Shown piece after piece: positions 4,246 to 64,000 of a stretch of 64,000 nucleotides of DNA. The position numbers and the translations under genes are program-made. The DNA is from Marinilabiliales bacterium (GTDB lineage Bacteria; Bacteroidota; Bacteroidia; Bacteroidales; F082). Within the stretch, counting starts at the first letter, position 1. The number at the start of each line of letters is the position of its first letter. Under the pieces are notes generated by a model. That model worked only from the letters and a program-made list of their open reading frames with translations, searched no databases and was not told the DNA's origin. The stretch spans positions 7,910 through 71,909 of the forward strand of contig PKTD01000107.1 of the NCBI GenBank assembly GCA_002869315.1, written 5' to 3'.

Positions 4246-7161
4246 ATGAAGAGAATTTTATTTTTTTATCTGCTCATAGCACTTGTGTTTATGGGTAGTA
4301 ATGCATTAAATGCACAAGAAACGAAGCAGCCTACACGAGTTTCAAAATCCGTATACATGGATGTTTCAAAAAAACTTAGTGACATAACACCCATTCAACC
4401 AGGATTACGTGAAAGAACATGGAAGAACAAAGAAGTTCCAAATGAATTGGATTATGAAGAAGTACTTGGTACTCCCGGACCTATGATTGGTGATGATCCT
4501 GTTCGCCAAAACAGTATGAAAAATACTACTGACGGAGGAATTATTAATCAGAATTTTTCAGGAGTTGGTAATCTTTCTGGGGTAGCACCTCCTGATACAC
4601 AGGGAGATGTTGGTCCAAACCATTATTTCCAAATGGTAAATAGTGCTTTCGCAATTTGGGATAAAGAAGGAAATTTACTTTACGGACCAGTTGATAATAT
4701 TACATTGTGGGATGGTTTCCCAGGACCTTGGTCAAGTACTAACGATGGTGATCCAGTTGTACTTTATGATGAGTATGCCGACAGATGGATAGCAACACAG
4801 TTTTCATTACCAAACTATCCTTCAGGACCTTTCTACGAATTAGTAGCAGTTTCGCAAACAGGTGATCCAACAGGAGAATGGAACAGATATGCTTTTGAAT
4901 TTAATGAGATGCCTGACTATCCAAAATTTGGTGTTTGGACTGACGGATATTACATGACAACACATAATTTTGCAGGAGGTGGTTTCACAGGAGCCGGATT
5001 AACTGTTTTTGACAGAGATGCAATGATAGCTGGTGAGCCTGTAGCTGATATGGTGGAGTTTAGTGTGGGATCTTCTTACTATGGAGTGTTAGCCGCCGAT
5101 GCTGATGGCCCAACACCGCCACCTGAAGGATCTCCTTCTTACCTTTTAGATATTATTGGTAATAGCGCAATGCGCATTTGGGAGGCTGAATTAGATTGGA
5201 ATATTCCTGATAATTCTGAATTAAGCCTTACCGCTACTTTATCAGTTGAATCTTTTTCAACCAATGGTTTGAATATTAGTCAGCCTGGTACAGGAACATC
5301 ACTTGATGCTCTTACAGGAATGACAATGTACCGTTTGCAATATCGGAATTTTGGGGATTATCAAACACTGGTAACTAACCATACTGTTAATGCAGGTGGC
5401 GGACAAGCCGGAGTGCGTTGGTATGAGTTGAGAAAAACAGATGCTAACTGGGAAATTTATCAACAGGGAACATATGCACCGGATGATGGCGATAACAGAT
5501 GGATGGCCAGTGCTGCAATGAATGGTAATGGTGATATTGCCATTGGATATTCTGTGTCCAGTTCATCAACTTATCCTTATATAAGGTTTGCCGGACAAAC
5601 TGCCGGAGCTCCAATGGGTCTAGGTGTTTTAGATATCGAAGAAACAAGTATATATGAAGGTAATAAATCTCAAACCGGTGTTAGCCGTTGGGGAGATTAT
5701 TCATGTATGACTGTGGATCCAACCAATGATGAGTCATTTTGGTTTACTACTGAATATTCAAACGGTGGATGGAGCTGGAAAACTCAGATCGCTTCATTTG
5801 GTTTTGTTCAGCCTCCTGTAGCCGATTTTAGTGCAGATGAAATATTAATACCTGTGGGAGAAAGTGTTGACTTTTTTGATGAAACTTCAGGTCTTCCTTC
5901 AGAATGGGAATGGACATTTGAGGGTGGTACCCCATCTTCCTCAACAGAGAGAGATCCTAGTGGAATTGTTTTCGACACTGAAGGCTCATTTACAGTTACA
6001 TTAACTGCTACTAATGTTCTGGGAACAGATACTAAAATAAAAGAAGGGTTTATAACTACTTCTTCATCTGTGCTTCCTGAAGTTGATTTTACAGCTGACA
6101 GATCAGAGATTTGTGTTGGCGATACAGTATATTTTACTGACCAAAGTAATTATAGCCCTAATCAATGGGCATGGTCATTTACTCCTGATGATGTTACATT
6201 TATAGAGGGTACTGATGCAAATAGTCAGAATCCGATAGTCGTATTTAATACTTCAGGCTCATTCGATGCTCATCTTCAGGTTTGGAATCTCAATGGTTCT
6301 TCAGAACTTGAGAAAACTGATATTCTTAATGCAGGAGGTCGCTTACCTTATTATAAAGAGACTTTTGAAAATGAAACCTATGCAAGTATTGGCTGGACAG
6401 TAAGTAATCCGGATGATGACGTTACATGGCAACTTTATGAAGTTGGTGGAACAACTCCGGGAATGACTGCAGCCGGTATCGACTTCTCAGATTATTTCGC
6501 GATAGGAGAAAGAGACAGATTAATTTCACCTGCTTTTAACCTTGAGGGTATGAGTAGTGCTGCAATGGGTTTCCAACACGCCTATGCACAGCGTATGGCT
6601 GATGCGGCTGACTCATTGGTAGTTTTAGTTTCTGACGATTGTGGACTTTCATGGACAAGAGTTTTTGCAGATGCCTAAAATGGTACAGGAAACTTTGCCA
6701 CTCATGAAATGACAAGTGAATTTTGGCCAGAAGTTGCTGAAGACTGGTGTATTGCCGGTTGGGGAGCAGGATGTATTGACCTTGATCTAACACCATGGGC
6801 AGGTAGTCCTAATGTTAAGGTTGCTTTTGAATCATATAGTTTCTATGGAAACCCACTTATGATTGATAACTTTACTGTAAGTCAGTATTTGAATACAGAA
6901 GAATCGGAAATTAATAAAGATCTGTTTAAGATTTTCCCAAATCCGGCTTCTACACAGTTTACTGTTCTTCTACCTGATAACTATACTTATTCAGAAGTAA
7001 TACTTATGAATCAGTTGGGTCAGGTTGTTAAAAGAGCCGATGTAGATGGAGTTTCAAATGTTGTAAACATTAGTATTGATCAAAAACTTGAAACAGGATT
7101 GTATTTTGTAAGAGTTATTGGTGCTGGAAAAGAAACTATTCAGAAACTAGTCATAAACTAG
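4246..7161 (+). pseudogene. secreted T9SS cargo protein (N-terminal propeller-like domain, two PKD domains, C-terminal Por sorting domain) interrupted by one in-frame TAA at 6676-6678
   Basis: ORFs 4246-6678 and 6709-7161 are in the same frame, and the 30 nt between them is open. Signal peptide MKRILFFYLLIALVFMGSNALNA|Q. PKD-like repeats (PVADFSADE...TVTLTATN and PEVDFTADR...). The last ~80 aa (FKIFPNPASTQFTVLL...GLYFVRVIGAGKETIQKLVIN) are a typical T9SS C-terminal domain. Confidence 0.75.
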
Positions 7162-29547: not shown

Positions 29548-30747
29548 TTGCTTGAGAAAAAAGAAACACAATTAAAAAAAGCTAAAGAAACAGCTGTTCT
29601 GGTTGGGATATCATCTAAATCAGAGGGAAGTGAGAAAATACACGAATATCTTGATGAACTGGAGTTTTTAGTAAAAACTGCAGGAGGTAAAACTATGGAG
29701 CGTTTTATACAGTCCTTGGATTTTCCTAATCCTAAAACATATGTGGGCAGTGGTAAACTTCAGGAAATAAAGGAATACATAAAAATTCAAGAAATTGAAC
29801 TTGTAGTTTTTGATGATGAATTAAGCCCTTCTCAGTTAAGAAATGTTGAGAAAGAATTGGAATGTAAAATTTTAGATCGCACAAATTTAATATTAGACAT
29901 ATTTGCTAAAAGGGCTCAAACATCACATGCTAAAGTGCAGGTAGAATTAGCGCAATATCAATACTTATTACCTCGCCTAACCAGAATGTGGACTCACCTC
30001 GAGCGTCAAAAAGGAGGAATAGGATTACGCGGTCCGGGAGAAACGGAAATTGAAACTGACCGCCGTATAATCCGCGATAAAATCAGCCTTCTTAAAAAGC
30101 GACTTACTCAAATAGACAAGCAAATGTCTACCCAGCGTAAAAATCGTGGGGAACTAATTAGAGTTGCATTAGTTTGATATACAAATGTTGGAAAATCTAC
30201 AATTATGAACCTTCTTAGTAAATCGGAAGTGTTTGCAGAAAATAAGTTATTTGCAACACTCGATACTACTGTACGAAAGGTAGTAATTGATAACTTACCT
30301 TTTCTGCTTTCTGATACTGTTGGGTTTATACGGAAACTTCCTCACGGACTTGTAGAGTCATTCAAGTCGACACTTGACGAAGTAAGAGAATCAGATATTT
30401 TAGTTCACGTTGTGGATATTTCTCATCCTGAATTTGAAGATCATATTGCTACTGTTACACAAACTCTTTCTGAAATTGGAGCTGCCGATAAAAAAGTAAT
30501 AATGGTCTTCAACAAAGTAGATGCATATACCTGGGAGGAAAAAGAGGATGACGACTTAACTCCTACAACTAAAGATAACATTAGTTTAGAAGAACTAAAA
30601 AATACATGGATGGCAAAGGAAAATAATCCTTGCATCTTTATCTCTGCTATTACAAAAGAAAATTATCATGAGTTTCGTAAACTATTATATGATAATATAA
30701 AAGAAATTCATGCCATTAGATATCCATATAATAATTTTCTCTATTAA
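29548..30747 (+). pseudogene. hflX: GTPase HflX interrupted by one in-frame TGA at 30175-30177
   Basis: ORFs 29548-30177 and 30205-30747 share a frame. Across the stop the translation reads RVALV*YTNVGKST, against the conserved HflX sequence VALVGYTNAGKST. The N-terminal part has GPGETEIETDRR. The C-terminal part has G3 DTVGF and G4 NKVD. TTG start. Confidence 0.85.
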
Positions 30748-31420: not shown

Positions 31421-32269
31421 ATGACCTTTTTTTATATCATTTTAACTGTACTTGCAATTATTATAATTTTATTTTTTGTAGCAGTTAACAATTTTAAAAA
31501 TCCACATGTTTCAAATGAAAAAAATCCACTTTCGGTTGGTATAGAATTTGAGATCAATAAAATCCCAAGTTTAAATTCTAAGAAACTAAATTCATGGTGG
31601 ATTTCCAATGAAAATTCAAATACTTCAATAATATTGATGCATGGATGGGGAAAAAATGCTGCGCGTCTCCTTCCATACATTAAGAATCTGAATTTTTATA
31701 AGTACAATATTTTAGCCTTCGATTCGAGGAATCATGGTGATAGTGATAAAGATAAGTATTCATCAATGATAAAGTTTTCGGAGGATATAAGTTCATGTAT
31801 AGATTTTCTGAAGAAAGAAAAAAAAGAATCTGCAGAAAATATTTATTTAATAGGTCTTTCCATAGGAGGGGCTGCTTCAATATATGCTGCTGCTAATGAT
31901 GACAGGATAAATAAAATTGTAACTGTAGGTGCCCCTTCAAACCCTGCGGATGTTATGAAATTACATCTTCTAAAGAAGAAGATCCCCAACTTTATCATAA
32001 GCATGGTTTTTAAATATCTGGAAATAAAAGTAGGTAAGAAATTTGATGAGATATGTGCCGCAAATAACATTAACAGAACCAGAGCAAAAACATTATTGGT
32101 ACATGGTACTTTAGATAGGGTTGTGCCGGTTGAACAAGGTGAATTAATATACAGTAAAGCCGATAAGCATAATGTTGATTTATGGAACATTGATGGAAAG
32201 GGCCATAGTAATTGTCATTATGAGAAAGGATACTGGAAAAAACTCCTTGATTTTTTCAATGAACAATAA
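31421..32269 (+). CDS. alpha/beta-fold hydrolase with N-terminal membrane anchor
   Basis: 282 aa. Nucleophile elbow GLSIGG. HG at the oxyanion position (ILMHGWG). C-terminal GKGHSN. Confidence 0.7.
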   Translation: MTFFYIILTVLAIIIILFFVAVNNFKNPHVSNEKNPLSVGIEFEINKIPSLNSKKLNSWWISNENSNTSIILMHGWGKNAARLLPYIKNLNFYKYNILAFDSRNHGDSDKDKYSSMIKFSEDISSCIDFLKKEKKESAENIYLIGLSIGGAASIYAAANDDRINKIVTVGAPSNPADVMKLHLLKKKIPNFIISMVFKYLEIKVGKKFDEICAANNINRTRAKTLLVHGTLDRVVPVEQGELIYSKADKHNVDLWNIDGKGHSNCHYEKGYWKKLLDFFNEQ

Positions 32270-33961: not shown

Positions 33962-34870
33962 CTACATCCACCCATTTTTTTTGAATAGAGTGATCATACC
34001 TCCACCTATTCCTAGCATAACTACCATAATTATCCAGAAAGCACTCTGTTCACTTTCCAGTGGTAATAATACATTCATACCATATATGCCCGTTAATAAA
34101 GTAAGTGGTAAAACAATAGATGAAATAAGAGTGAGTATCTTCATTATTTCATTTGTTTTGTTGGTCTGCATCGAATCGAAAGTTGTTGAAAGACCCTCTA
34201 TAAGTTCTCCAAAGTCCTCAGTCATATACCACATCTGGTTATAGTAGTCGAGGATATTACCCCAGTAATCTTCCATATTGTCAGCAAAACCCTGAACTTT
34301 ACCAGATTCGAATTTATTGAAAACCCTTAGTTGAGGCTTTAGCATTGTATTTAGAACAATGATATTTTTTCTGGTTACCGAAAGTCTCTCAATAATTCTG
34401 GCCGGAGATTTTCCAAATAACTGCCTGTTTATTAACTCTAATTCGAGGCCTACCTTACGCAATAAATAAGTAGATTCATTCATAAGTTTTTCCAAAATAG
34501 CATATAGAATAGCATCTGAGGTACCTACTTCAAAATCTTCTCCTTTTTGGTATTGTTCCATTGCATCGTCAAAAACACTATCCACCACCCAATGAGATCT
34601 TCCTATAGTTATCAGATAGTCTTCTCCCCAGAAAATTTTAACCTCCTTCGGTTTTATAAACTTATTTTGCCTGTCGAAATTTGGAAAATGAAGAACTAAA
34701 AAATAGTAATCATCATAGATATCAATTTTTGATCGTTGATTGGATTCGCGACAGTCTTCAATGTCAAGAGGGTGAAAATGATAAGTATTTGCAATCTCAT
34801 CCAGATCTTCATTTGTAGGATTCTTGATGTTTACCCACAACAATCTTCCTATTTTAATAGTTTCAACCAT
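33962..34870 (-). CDS. corA: CorA-family magnesium/cobalt transporter
   Basis: 302 aa. Two C-terminal TM helices with the YGMNV signature. Confidence 0.85.
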   Translation of the reverse strand: MVETIKIGRLLWVNIKNPTNEDLDEIANTYHFHPLDIEDCRESNQRSKIDIYDDYYFLVLHFPNFDRQNKFIKPKEVKIFWGEDYLITIGRSHWVVDSVFDDAMEQYQKGEDFEVGTSDAILYAILEKLMNESTYLLRKVGLELELINRQLFGKSPARIIERLSVTRKNIIVLNTMLKPQLRVFNKFESGKVQGFADNMEDYWGNILDYYNQMWYMTEDFGELIEGLSTTFDSMQTNKTNEIMKILTLISSIVLPLTLLTGIYGMNVLLPLESEQSAFWIIMVVMLGIGGGMITLFKKNGWM

Positions 34871-34956: not shown

Positions 34957-36495
34957 TTAAAGCGGAATATTACCATGTTTTTTTGGTGGATTGCTATCCG
35001 ATTTATTATCAGTCATTTCCAATGCCTGATTTAATTTCTTTCTGGTATTATGAGGGAATATAATTTCATCAATATAGCCTAGTTCAGCAGCTTTATAAGG
35101 ACTGGCAAAGTTATTCCTGTAATCAGAAACGGCTTTTGCCCTTTCCTCTTCATTATTTAGTTTATTTCTGTAAATAATATTAACTGCTCCTTCAGGTCCC
35201 ATAACTGCAATTTAAGCAGTGGGATAAGCAAAGTTGTAGTCTGCACCAATATGCTTGCTCGACATTACATCGTATGCACCACAATAGGCTTTACGGGTAA
35301 TTACAGTAATTTTTGGAACTGTGGCTTCAGCGAATGCGTATAATAATTTTGCACCATGTTTGATTATTCCGCCAAATTCCTGCGCAGTACCAGGTAAAAA
35401 TCCTGGAACATCCTCAAAAGTTATTAATGGGATATTGAAGGCATCACAGAATCTCACAAAACGAGCTGCTTTTGTGGAACTGTCGATATCTAATACTCCT
35501 GCTAATACTGCCGGCTGATTAGCAACTATACCAACTGGTTTTCCTCCAATGCGTGCAAAACCAACTATAATATTTTTAGCGTAATGTGGTTGAACCTCCA
35601 GAAAGTGCTTATTATCCACAACAGGAAGTATAATTTCCATCATGTCGTATGGTTTGTTTGGATCCGTAGGTATAATATTATCCAAGGCAGGTTCTTCTCT
35701 CGACATATCGTCGATACATTCTTTTCTTGGTGGATCTTCCAGATTATTGGAAGGAAGGAAACTCATTAATTCCCTTATCATCATCATTGCCTGTTCGTCA
35801 TCATCAGCTGTAAAATGTGCAACACCTGACTTTTGATTATGAGTCATTGCACCTCCCAGGTCTTCCATGGTTACTTCTTCATTTGTAACAGTTTTAATAA
35901 CATCAGGTCCTGTTACAAACATATAAGATGTATCTTTTACCATCATAATGAAATCAGTAATTGCAGGAGAATAAACAGCTCCACCTGCACATGGACCTAA
36001 AATGGCCGATATTTGAGGGATAACTCCTGAACTTCTTACGTTACGGTAAAATATATCAGCATATCCTGCGAGACTTTCTACGCCCTCCTGAATTCTGGCA
36101 CCACCCGAATCATTAAGTCCTATTACAGGTGCTCCCATTTTCATTGCAAGATCCATTATTTTTACAATCTTATCTGCATTTGATCTGCTTAGTGAACCAC
36201 CTAGTACGGTAAAATCCTGAGCAAACGCATACATAAGTCTGCCATCGATTTTTCCATATCCGGTAACAACACCATCTCCTAGGACTTTGTTTTTGTCCAT
36301 ACCAAAATTAGTATTACGATGTGTAACAAACTTATCGATTTCTACAAATGTATCCTTATCGAATAAATGTTTAATACGCTCTCTGGCAGTTTTTCTTCCT
36401 GCTTTATGCTGTTTATCGATTCGCTCCTGGCCACCGCCAAGTTCTGCTAGTTTATGCTTTTCTTCGAGTTCCTGTATTTTTGGTCTTAATGACAT
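34957..36495 (-). pseudogene. acyl-CoA carboxylase carboxyltransferase subunit (propionyl-CoA carboxylase beta / methylmalonyl-CoA decarboxylase alpha type) interrupted by one in-frame TAA at 35212-35214
   Basis: ORFs 35212-36495 and 34957-35202 share a frame. The junction reads AYPTA*IAVMGPEGAV, against the conserved PTAEIAVMG. It ends with the canonical KHGNIPL. It also carries KAYCGAY where the family has KAYGGAY (TGT at 35281-35283). Confidence 0.85.
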
Positions 36496-36524: not shown

Positions 36525-37040
36525 TTATTCCTCAATATCTTCAAGTAAAATTAAATGTTGATGACCATCAATATTGTCACCTTCTTTAACCATTATTTGT
36601 TTTATACGTTTATCGTTTACAAGTTTGTATTCACTCTCCATTTTCATGGCAGATACAATAATGGCGGTTTCTCCTTTTTTTGCTATTTCACCTTCTTTTA
36701 CAAGTATTTTAACGACTTTGCCTGGCATAGGAGTTGAAATGAAATTCGCATCATCATCTTCGCTACCCTTTCGGCTGTTCATATACTTAGTTTCAGGGTC
36801 TATCACTTCTATATCGAAAGAGTTATACAAAGTATTTACTTCATATTTTTTTAAACCGCTCTCACTCAATTCTATATTAAAGGATGTTCCATCAATAATA
36901 ATTGAATAAACTCCTTTTTCCACTTCAACAATATCGGCTTTATATACCCTGTCGTCTACAGCTATTTCTACAAAATTTCCATCCCGCTTAAGGATTTTAA
37001 TTTCTGATACTTCATCGTTTACTTTTATTTCGTATGACAT
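36525..37040 (-). CDS. biotin carboxyl carrier protein (biotin/lipoyl attachment domain)
   Basis: 171 aa. Biotinylation motif SAMKME near the C-terminus. Confidence 0.8.
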
Positions 37041-37051
37041 TTTTCCAGAGT

Positions 37052-38563
37052 TTAAAAATGATTAACACTATTTTTGCGACCAAACTGTTTCCATGGAGAT
37101 GCCTTTTTACAAGTTTTTCCATTATTTGCTGCTGCAGAATCATATTTTGATATGAAATCTACAAAGGCCGCAATGGATGCCACATCTTTAACTTTTTGCT
37201 TAGCATCTTTTTTTGCGTCAAGGAATTCAGAATTATCCTGAATGAAATGCGTATTATACCTGCCTTCTTTAAAATCAGGCACATCCATAATTCTGTGAAG
37301 GAAAGGTATTGATGTTTTTACACCAGTAATTTTATAGGCATGTAATGCTCTTTTCATTCTGTCGATGGCCTCATCTCTGGTAGGTGCCCAGCAAATTAAT
37401 TTAGAAATCATTGGGTCGTAATACATTGGTATTTCATAACCCTCATAAACATAACCATCGTGGCGAACGCCCAATCCTAGAGGTTCGGTTATATGTTTTA
37501 TTTTACCAGGATTTGGCATAAAATTATTGTCAGGATCTTCAGCATAAATTCTTACCTCTATGGCATGGCCATTTTGAGATAAATCTTCCTGTTTTAACTC
37601 TAATTCAAGATCATTAGCAATTTTTATCTGTTCTTTTACAAGATCAACGCCAACCACTCTTTCAGTAATAGGATGCTCCACCTGAAGACGGGTATTCATT
37701 TCGAGGAAATAATAATTTAAATCATCATCCACAATGAATTCAATGGTCCCTGCTCCTGAATAGTTTACTGCTTTTGCTGCAGCAACAGCATGTTCACCCA
37801 TTTCCATTCTAACCTTATCATTCATAATTGGAGAAGGGGTTTCTTCAACAACTTTTTGATGACGTCTTTGAACAGAACATTCTCTTTCAAAAAGATGAAC
37901 AGCATTTCCATGATTATCGCAAAGCACTTGAAATTCAATATGATGTGGCGAATTGATATACTTTTCAATGTAAACAGCATCATCTCCAAAAGCAGCCATA
38001 GCCTCTGATTTGGCAGCACTTACCGAGGATATAATATCTTCTTCCTTACTTACAAGTCTCATTCCTTTACCTCCACCACCTGAACTGGCTTTCACCATTA
38101 CTGGTAATCCAATTTCTTTGATAGTTTTAACTGCTGCGTCAAGATCTGTTATAGGCTCTATAGTACCAGGAACAACCGGAACTGATGCTTTTTGCATTTT
38201 CTTCCGGGCCGTAATTTTATCTCCCATAGTATTTATAGCATAAGATGAAGGTCCTATAAAAATAATACCTTCGGCTTTACACCTATCAGAGAACTCAGCA
38301 TTTTCTGATAAAAATCCATATCCAGGATGTATGGCATCTGCACCACTTTTCTTAGCAGCATCGATAATTTTGTCAATTACCAGATAACTCTCATTGGAAG
38401 GTGATGGTCCAATAAAATATGCTTCGTCGGCAAACCTAACATGCATAGATGTACGATCTGCTTCCGAAAATACGGCAACCGATTTAATTCCCATCTCACG
38501 ACAAGAACGCATAACACGGATGGCAATTTCACCTCTGTTGGCTACCAAAATTTTTTTAATCAT
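37052..38563 (-). CDS. accC: biotin carboxylase subunit of an acyl-CoA carboxylase
   Basis: 503 aa. ATP-grasp motifs KASSGGGGKGMR and ERECSVQRRHQK, with the N-terminal KILVANRGEIAIR. Confidence 0.9.
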   Translation of the reverse strand: MIKKILVANRGEIAIRVMRSCREMGIKSVAVFSEADRTSMHVRFADEAYFIGPSPSNESYLVIDKIIDAAKKSGADAIHPGYGFLSENAEFSDRCKAEGIIFIGPSSYAINTMGDKITARKKMQKASVPVVPGTIEPITDLDAAVKTIKEIGLPVMVKASSGGGGKGMRLVSKEEDIISSVSAAKSEAMAAFGDDAVYIEKYINSPHHIEFQVLCDNHGNAVHLFERECSVQRRHQKVVEETPSPIMNDKVRMEMGEHAVAAAKAVNYSGAGTIEFIVDDDLNYYFLEMNTRLQVEHPITERVVGVDLVKEQIKIANDLELELKQEDLSQNGHAIEVRIYAEDPDNNFMPNPGKIKHITEPLGLGVRHDGYVYEGYEIPMYYDPMISKLICWAPTRDEAIDRMKRALHAYKITGVKTSIPFLHRIMDVPDFKEGRYNTHFIQDNSEFLDAKKDAKQKVKDVASIAAFVDFISKYDSAAANNGKTCKKASPWKQFGRKNSVNHF

Positions 38564-52053: not shown

Positions 52054-52824
52054 ATGAAAATAAAAAATATAGTTATAATAGGATTCATCCTTATGCTGTC
52101 CACCACATATTATTCGTGCAGCAAATTGAATTCAGTAAATGGAAATGGCCATGTTCTTACTGAAGAAAGAAGGCTTGTAAACTTTGATCAGGTAAAAAAT
52201 GAAGGAGAGTTTAATGTATTCATTTCTTACGATACAGTTTATCAGGCGATAGTAGAGGCCGAAACAAATCTGATTCCTTATATCAGGACTATTGTTAACG
52301 GAAATACTTTAATTATCGATAGTAGAGAAAATTTGCGTCCTGGAATGTCAATAAATATTTATGTAAAAACCCCAAATGTAAAATATATAGAATTGAGCGG
52401 CTCGGGTACAATTTTTTGTGATTCGGTAAGTGGAGATAATGTTGGCTCAGTAATTAGTGGCTCAGGTAGTATAGAAGCCAATTTATACGGCGCTGTATCC
52501 GAACTTGATATAAGTTGATCAGGAAATATGTTGCTAAATATAGAATCATTAATGACCTATTGCGATATCAGTGGTTCTGGAGATATTTATGTATCTGGTT
52601 CTTCTACTGAAGGCGATTTTAAAATCAGCGGATCAGGTAATATTAATTCATACGATTTATATCAGGAAAAACTGGATGCTAAAATTAGTGGATCAGGAAA
52701 TATGTACGTTAATGTTTCAGATATTTTAAATGCAAAAATTAGTGGCAGTGGATCTGTTTATTATATTGGAAATCCACTTTTAGATGTTAATATAACAGGT
52801 TCTGGTTCAGTAATTAAACATTAA
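52054..52824 (+). pseudogene. lipoprotein with DUF2807/GIN (autotransporter-head-like) repeats, interrupted by one in-frame TGA at 52516-52518
   Basis: ORFs 52054-52518 and 52528-52824 share a frame. The junction reads ELDIS*SGNM, whereas the protein repeats ISGSGD, ISGSGN (twice) and ISGSGS (twice). Lipobox-like TTYYSC. Confidence 0.7.
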
Positions 52825-54852: not shown

Positions 54853-55809
54853 ATGAAGAATAGTATCTGTGAATTGTTTCAAATAAAATACCCAATTGTA
54901 CAGGGAGGTATGATTTGGTGTAGCGGATGGGAACTGGCATCAGCGGTCAGTAATGCTGGGGGTTTGGGGCTTATTGGCAGTGGTAGTATGTATCCCGAAA
55001 TTTTTGAAGAACACGTCTTAAAATGCAAAAAAGCAACTGATAAACCTTTCGGTGTTAATGTCCCTTTGCTATATCCACAAACTGATGAAATTGTTGAGAT
55101 AATAGTAAAACACGGGATAAAAATTGTTTTCACTTCTGCAGGAAATCCTGCAAAATATACTTCTTATCTCAAGGATAAAGGCATAACTGTAGTGCATGTT
55201 GTAGCCAATAAAAAGTTTGCATCAAAAGCTCAGGCAGCGGGCGTTGATGCTATTGTTGCTGAGGGTTTTGAAGCCGGAGGACATAATGGTATTGAAGAAA
55301 CAACTACCATGGTACTGATACCTATGCTAAAACAAGAAATAGATATTCCAATTATTGCTGCAGGAGGGATTGCCTCAGGGAGTTCGATATTTGCCGCTTT
55401 GGCATTAGGAGCAGAAGGAGTCCAAATAGGTAGTTTGTTTGCTTCATCAGTGGAATCTTCAGCCCATGAAAATTTTAAAAATAAAATTATTTCTGCTGGC
55501 GATGGAAGTACAAAACTTACATTAAAAAGTGTTGTTCCTGTTCGTTTGATTAAGAATGATTTTTTTAATGAAGTAGCACAAGCTGAGAGTAAAGGTGCTT
55601 CTAGAGAAGAACTTATTAGCCTGCTTGGCAAGGGTCGTTCAAAACTTTGAATGTATGAAGGCGATACTTCTAAAGGGGAATTGGAAATTGGACAGGTTTC
55701 ATCAATGATAAAGGATGTACTGCCTGTTAGTGAAATCTTTACTAATCTTATTGAAGAGTATAAACAAACAAAAAATAAAATGCAGATAAACTTGGATTTA
55801 TTTGGATAA
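54853..55809 (+). pseudogene. NAD(P)H-dependent flavin oxidoreductase (nitronate monooxygenase / FabK-like enoyl-ACP reductase II) interrupted by one in-frame TGA at 55648-55650
   Basis: ORF 54853-55650 continues in frame as MYEGDTSKGELEIGQVSSMIKDVLPVSEIFTNLIEEYK... to the TAA at 55807-55809. This 52-aa tail is below the ORF-track cutoff. The junction GKGRSKL*MYEGD corresponds to the family pattern GRxKKGMFEGD. Motifs PIVQGGM and AGGGIASG. Confidence 0.8.
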
Positions 55810-63400: not shown

Positions 63401-64000
63401 CTAAAAAATCATAGTGAAAGCAGCACCTTCGTCTTGCTTGGATCTGACACTTATGCTACCTTTATGCATCTGCATAATCTGTCGAGACAAACTCAACCCT
63501 ATGCCCGAACCAGTTTGTTTGGAAGTAAAAAATGGCATAAATATTTTATCCATTATATCGGGTTTTATGCCTTTTCAATTATCACTAATTTCTATGGTCA
63601 CCCTATTATTGAGGTTTACTGAAGCGGTAATGCTTATTTCAGGATTTTCAGAACCTTTAACGGCATCAATGGCATTTAGAAGCAGATTGATAATCACCTG
63701 ATCTATCAAATCGGGGTCGGCAAGTATTTTTAATTCGGAAGGTAATATTTTAGATTTTACTTTTACATTACACTCTTTTACATTTTTTGACAATAGTTCC
63801 AAGGCTCTGTCTATCATTTCTTTAACCTCAAAATATCTAAAGGTTGGTTTTGGAATTCGAGTAAGGTTTCTGTAAATCTCCACGAAATTCAGCAGACCTT
63901 TACTTCTCTTTTCGATGGTGTTTATGGCATGAGCTACATCATCCAGACTTTCTATATCTTCTTTTTTGCGTGGCGGATTGTTCTCACGAGTGTCCTGAAT
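63401..64000 (-). pseudogene. sensor histidine kinase (C-terminal catalytic part; 5' end off the right edge) interrupted by one in-frame TGA at 63575-63577
   Basis: The frame is open from 64000 down to the TAG at 63401-63403, apart from the TGA. The junction reads VTIEISDN*KGIKPD, against the invariant G1 box DNGxGI. Downstream are an F box (IFMPFFTSK) and a G2 box (GSGIGLSLSRQI). Confidence 0.8.

Follow-up and report, generated by a model that had tools for sequence, protein, structure and literature searches.

The acyl-CoA carboxylase carboxyltransferase (beta) gene considered here is interrupted in the deposited assembly but is very probably intact in the organism. The in-frame TAA that breaks it and a TGT codon in the same frame would both be substitution errors of a draft assembly, part of a set of G>T changes scattered over the whole genome, for which guanine oxidation or miscalls are the likely origin. 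The interruption is thus an artefact of the genome record and not a real biological feature. The stretch of DNA analysed, called the window, comprises 64,000 nucleotides and corresponds to positions 7910-71909 of contig C2 of the assembly that holds it (GCA_002869315.1, here G000), which amounts to 3.29 Mb in 324 contigs and is ~87% complete. Five further genomes (G001-G005) are relatives from the same genus, and the two closest of them, G002 and G005, show 77-78% DNA identity and full synteny.

The gene, of the PccB/MmdA type, occupies positions 34957-36495 of the minus strand (512 codons) and is the last of an operon whose order on that strand is biotin carboxylase (37052-38563, 503 aa), biotin carboxyl carrier protein (BCCP; 36525-37040, 171 aa) and carboxyltransferase. 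Both partners, which lie directly upstream, are intact. The BCCP product, identical in L095 and in the contigs L001 and L002 described below, carries a Biotin_lipoyl domain, and the biotin carboxylase homologue in L001 carries the domains Biotin_carb_N, CPSase_L_D2 and Biotin_carb_C. The Pfam domain Carboxyl_trans (PF01039) spans residues 28-510 of the 512 of the carboxyltransferase, across the stop, with 665.9 bits against a cut-off of 22.3. The nearest solved structure is 1vrg, a propionyl-CoA carboxylase beta subunit that is matched over the whole length with 728 bits. Other near structures are 3n6r (propionyl-CoA carboxylase beta) and 1xny (PccB of S. coelicolor), followed by 1x0u (methylmalonyl-CoA decarboxylase alpha subunit) and 1on3 (12S transcarboxylase). 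Because of these nearest structures, and of the operon shared with biotin carboxylase and BCCP, the product is assigned by sequence as the PccB/MmdA-type carboxyltransferase subunit of a predicted biotin-dependent acyl-CoA carboxylase.

Two codons of this frame are at issue. A TGT (Cys) stands at 35281-35283 of the minus strand in place of Gly405 of the motif RKAYGGAY, and a TAA stands at 35212-35214 of the same strand in place of Glu428 of the motif PTAEIAVMG. An earlier note on this DNA had placed both codons exactly there, 23 codons apart. Beyond the TAA the frame runs on for 84 more codons to the usual C-terminus of the family (...KKHGNIPL), where it ends in a second TAA. Searched for its motifs, the window reads RKAYCGAY and PTA*IAVMG (the asterisk being the stop) and not RKAYGGAY and P(T/S)AEIAVMG, a failure to be ascribed, as judged from sequence comparison, to the assembly instead of the organism. 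In PccB, the GGA of the first motif presumably helps to form the oxyanion hole that serves biotin.

The earlier note had held that PccB/MmdA-type enzymes carry both motifs, and it had proposed an alignment with orthologues as a check. In the best 120 database matches, whose identity is 83-100%, Gly occupies column 405 and Glu column 428 in 120/120, and the adjoining columns G406, A407, A427 and I429 are invariant as well. Close relatives have neither a natural Cys at the first of these columns nor a sense codon other than GAA at the second; they carry Gly and GAA-Glu.

Two contigs from other samples cover the gene and are nearly identical to the window. L001 is a JGI metagenome contig of 8546 bp that aligns with 99.84% identity and no gaps, and L002 is a contig of an ENA assembly (3712 bp, k-mer coverage 2.8) with 99.78% identity. 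At positions 35214 and 35283 of the + strand the window has A, while L001, L002, G002 and G005 all have C, and the stop column is GAA in both G002 and G005. The L001 product (P0002) is an intact protein of 512 aa, identical to that of the window except for G405 and E428. The two deviations are therefore single G->T changes of the coding strand (GGT>TGT and GAA>TAA) when measured against near-identical contigs, as had been claimed. A third change of this kind affects codon 215 of the CorA gene (34226-34228, minus strand), where GAT has become TAT (Asp>Tyr); at position 34228 of the + strand the window has A and L001, G002 and G005 have C.

When private changes are polarised with outgroups, the 8.5 kb common to L001 and the window contain three private G:C>T:A changes of the window, namely E428*, G405C and CorA D215Y. 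All three are radical, all are G>T on the minus coding strand, and all lie within 1.06 kb, D215Y being 986 bases from the TAA. The three other private changes of the window (A348T, K486R and G375G) are conservative or silent transitions. L001 has a private G:C>T:A change of its own, G107C in a hydrolase (window position 31736), and L002 has three in the carboxyltransferase, P160H, A371E and L299L (window positions 35384, 35599 and 36017). Therefore, this class of error occurs in more than one assembly of this population. Over the three assemblies, private changes are non-synonymous in 6/7 cases for G:C>T:A versus 2/9 for the others (Fisher p = 0.04), and the six, all of them radical, are E428*, G405C, D215Y, G107C, P160H and A371E. 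This argues that the G:C>T:A class has not been filtered by selection, whereas the rest looks like ordinary polymorphism. A look-up with the BCCP product yielded only one more contig, of 1.7 kb, which ends before the site, and an exact-product look-up with the 338-aa neighbour protein gave no match. The adjacent Lnt protein, used against metagenomes from which near-identical records are excluded, had no match above 74% identity.

The same signature is found throughout the genome. Open frames from G005 (2.0 Mb) and G002 (0.27 Mb) were compared with G000 by tblastn in both directions; the best frame per place was kept, and a stop was counted only if the 25 residues on either side of it showed >=60% identity. 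In the 404,749 codons compared, G000 has 58 in-frame stops (1.4e-4 per codon) versus 3 in 382,387 codons for G005, which is 18-fold fewer. At the stops of G000 the relative has Glu in 27 cases (TAA/TAG) and Gly in 11 (TGA), together 38/58. Among the 34 stops reachable in one step, 25 are explained by G>T and three by C>A, so that 28 belong to the G:C>T:A class, whose share of the opportunities is 28% (p = 9e-11). The nonsense rate is 1.0e-3 per stop-prone G site. The stops are distributed over the contigs as a Poisson process (dispersion p = 0.87). Candidate frameshifts in G000 number ~5 against the 58 stops; this is therefore a substitution problem and not one of long-read indels, an origin that was considered and discarded.

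Five other in-frame stops lie in the window and all fit the Glu/Gly pattern. They are a TAA in a large secreted-protein gene (6676-6678, + strand), where both G002 and G005 have GAA (Glu); a TGA in hflX (30175-30177, + strand), where relatives have GGA (Gly); a TGA at 52516-52518 (+ strand), where relatives have GGT (Gly); a TGA at 55648-55650 (+ strand), where G005 has GGA (Gly); and a TGA at 63575-63577 (minus strand, C2:71484-71486), where G005 again has GGA (Gly).

Some further observations concern the distribution of the stops. Beyond the window, an in-frame TGA occupies a Gly column (GGC in G005) at C2:93686-93688. The densest patch seen, C40:10187-21581, has five stops over 11.4 kb; the genes affected are glnS, asnS, rpoN, that of an RND efflux pump and a small lipoprotein-like one. 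Heterogeneity among contigs, considered as a proxy for coverage, was set aside, since these five stops look clustered but the genome-wide dispersion is flat (p = 0.87). An apparent excess of T preceding the G>T sites vanished after normalising for opportunity. The rate of in-frame stops is also high in G002 (5 stops over 49,118 codons, including two GAA>TAA; loci L029, L030 and L032), and this genome may suffer from the same kind of error as G000.

Missense changes agree with the nonsense changes. Isolated amino-acid differences between G005 and G000 were collected where 12 identical residues stand on each side (55,900 columns). Changes from a coding-strand G in G005 to T in G000 number 84 versus 49 in the reverse direction (p = 0.003), while C>A missense changes number 60 versus 60, and every substitution class other than coding-strand G>T is symmetric. 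The missense G>T excess amounts to 1.03e-3 +/- 0.34e-3 per non-synonymous G site and equals the nonsense rate; therefore, no purifying selection has acted on these changes. The genes affected lead to the same point. Stops are present in the orthologues of bamA, secA, obgE, glnS, asnS, rpoN and dnaE, each of which is the sole copy in G000. BamA, SecA, ObgE, GlnRS, AsnRS and DnaE score above their NCBIfam equivalog cut-offs, and the sigma-54 (rpoN) open frame, cut short, falls below its own (197 vs 277 bits). Since single-copy essential genes are broken, the sequence cannot be that of a living clone's genome, and since, in addition, the changes are absent from other samples of the same population, they are not fixed clonal mutations.

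The course of events that we propose is as follows. GAA>TAA and GGT>TGT would be substitution errors, lying 69 bases from each other on one strand, within a scatter that reaches ~1 per 1000 coding-strand guanines. Extrapolated over ~1 million codons, this rate would give ~140 false stops, and missense changes of the order of a thousand. As for the chemical cause, the most likely source would be oxidation of guanine during sample or library preparation (8-oxoG being read as T), or else G>T miscalls. C>A/G>T artefacts due to DNA oxidation during shearing in library preparation are documented (PMC3616734). Sites covered by too few reads or template molecules would have let such errors pass into the consensus, low coverage being here a supposition. 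At the genome-wide rate, two changes 69 bases apart on one strand have a chance of roughly 1.5%, and for this reason the TAA and the TGT probably derive from a single damaged fragment or read.

With respect to the material itself, contig ends of G000 overlap in seven pairs (for instance C120/C152, C73/C168 and C130/C256) over 310-380 bp with 96-99% identity, the differences being mostly transitions. This suggests strain heterogeneity breaking the assembly graph, and a metagenome bin instead of a single-cell genome. The overlaps were examined as possible evidence on the errors and put aside, since differences that are mostly transitions reflect strain variation and are uninformative in that respect.

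The scatter appears to depend on the direction of the genes. For G of the coding strand the excess of G>T is ~3 times as strong as for G of the template strand (stops and missense combined, p = 0.004). Among the stops, 38 are of the kind that coding-strand G>T would give and at most 5 of the kind that C>A would give, where codon usage leads to an expectation of 73:27 (p = 0.013); a smaller, earlier sample had given 35 vs 3 (p = 0.003), and the signal weakened as the sample grew. The missense excess is 35 +/- 11.5 for G>T and 0 +/- 11 for C>A. In a sample of 49 stops the affected genes lie on both strands of the contigs (23 on + and 12 on -), and it is therefore not a replication-strand effect. 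The immediate trinucleotide context does not account for the coding-strand bias. At fourfold sites the coding strand of G000 has 57,813 A, 22,907 C, 64,622 T and 15,585 G; this G-poor, T-rich skew would agree with a G>T bias acting on the coding strand over a long time, and also with ordinary codon preference.

Genes for the repair of oxidised guanine were also sought. No MutY (TIGR01084) scores above the cut-off in the six genomes of the genus (G000-G005), where the only match is Nth-like and reaches ~90 bits, the cut-off being 286.5. In two related families MutY is present, with 316-323 bits. Fpg (TIGR00577) was not found in the five genus genomes searched for it (G000 and G002-G005). The gap is thus common to all genus genomes searched and not confined to G000, and the genus may be without the classical oxidised-guanine repair system, of which MutY and Fpg were searched.

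These observations bear on three other explanations of the interrupted gene. One of them, which we regard as improbable, is that the changes are real lesions of the cell: oxidised guanines would persist on the non-transcribed strand and be read as T from a few environmental templates, the germ-line gene remaining intact. In a genus without MutY and Fpg, the two related families having MutY, transcription-coupled repair would be the only route left. The coding-strand excess speaks for it, since stops and missense changes, which are nearly independent sets of data, both show it, and so do genes of both contig strands. According to one report (PMC13128490) and its reference 64, transcribed strands of human cells are poorer in oxidised guanines, and in E. 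coli transcription favours G>T on the strand that is not transcribed. The asymmetry is, however, modest, and for the stops its p value rose from 0.003 to 0.013 with the larger sample; an extended context on the purine-rich coding strand could mimic it. Moreover, G005 has the same repair gap and almost no false stops. The density required, ~1 lesion per 1000 G, greatly exceeds the usual steady state and is very high for damage inside cells. A second explanation takes the changes as real mutations, fixed in a lineage that hypermutates or decays and is deficient in the repair of oxidised guanine, which would make the carboxyltransferase a real pseudogene. The repair gap, a spectrum like that expected from unrepaired 8-oxoG and a coding-strand bias that fits an origin in vivo all agree with it. 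Nevertheless, it is very unlikely: a viable clone could not have stops in single-copy secA, bamA, obgE, glnS, asnS and dnaE, the changes are missing from the near-identical contigs of two other samples, and the equality of nonsense and missense rates (1.0e-3 per site) leaves no room for purifying selection. The loss of MutY and Fpg is, besides, genus-wide in the genomes searched and not specific to this lineage, and G005, with the same gap, has 18-fold fewer stops.

The third explanation is stop-codon recoding, in which TAA and TAG would code for Glu and TGA for Gly. It draws on the 38 of 58 in-frame stops that stand at Glu or Gly columns, but this mapping is the exact product of G>T at the first codon position. 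Recoding leaves G405C and D215Y unexplained; the earlier note had already argued that the missense change lies outside its reach. TAA ends the carboxyltransferase gene itself at the usual C-terminus of the family, contigs that are 99.8% identical and the relatives use GAA at the site, and the frequency of the stops is only 1 per 7000 codons. No stop anticodon (TTA, CTA or TCA) is present among the 32 tRNAs found, an incomplete set that by itself weighs little. Taken together, these points leave recoding a negligible probability. The earlier note had seen in this gene the sign of a G->T mutational or error process, and the private changes, the genome-wide G:C>T:A excess and the continued use of TAA as terminator bear this out. 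Between the two terms of that claim, error is much likelier than mutation, because single-copy essential genes are broken as well.

The reading of the TAA and the TGT as consensus errors is mainly of value as a quality warning on this genome record. Taken at face value, the assembly would provide ~140 false pseudogenes, including the carboxylase, hflX, secA, two aminoacyl-tRNA synthetases and dnaE. The Glu/Gly pattern of its stops could also tempt to a claim of recoding, the pattern being the footprint of G>T at the first codon position. The coding-strand bias, together with the genus-wide absence of MutY and Fpg, is of possible interest to specialists and does not change the verdict on the gene. 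If the reading as lesions inside cells were true, error-laden drafts of such lineages would hold a readable in-situ record of transcription-linked DNA damage.

Compared with the PccB/MmdA family, the window gene has in common the full-length match and the operon with biotin carboxylase and BCCP, and its intact allele has both motifs. The deposited sequence departs from the family at two places: its GG pair begins with Cys instead of Gly, and a stop replaces the Glu. The errors themselves can be compared with the oxidation artefact described by Costello et al. in 2013 (PMC3616734). That artefact predicts no strand preference, and indeed a process in vitro should strike G on both strands equally, blind to the direction of genes, whereas in G000 that independence of gene direction is missing and the coding strand is ~3-fold enriched. 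It also normally affects a small fraction of reads, while here the changes reached the consensus of a deposited assembly, which needs very low coverage, as supposed here, or very few template molecules. In the remaining characters the likeness is close: the changes are nearly all G:C>T:A, private, blind to selection, randomly scattered and not accompanied by indels.
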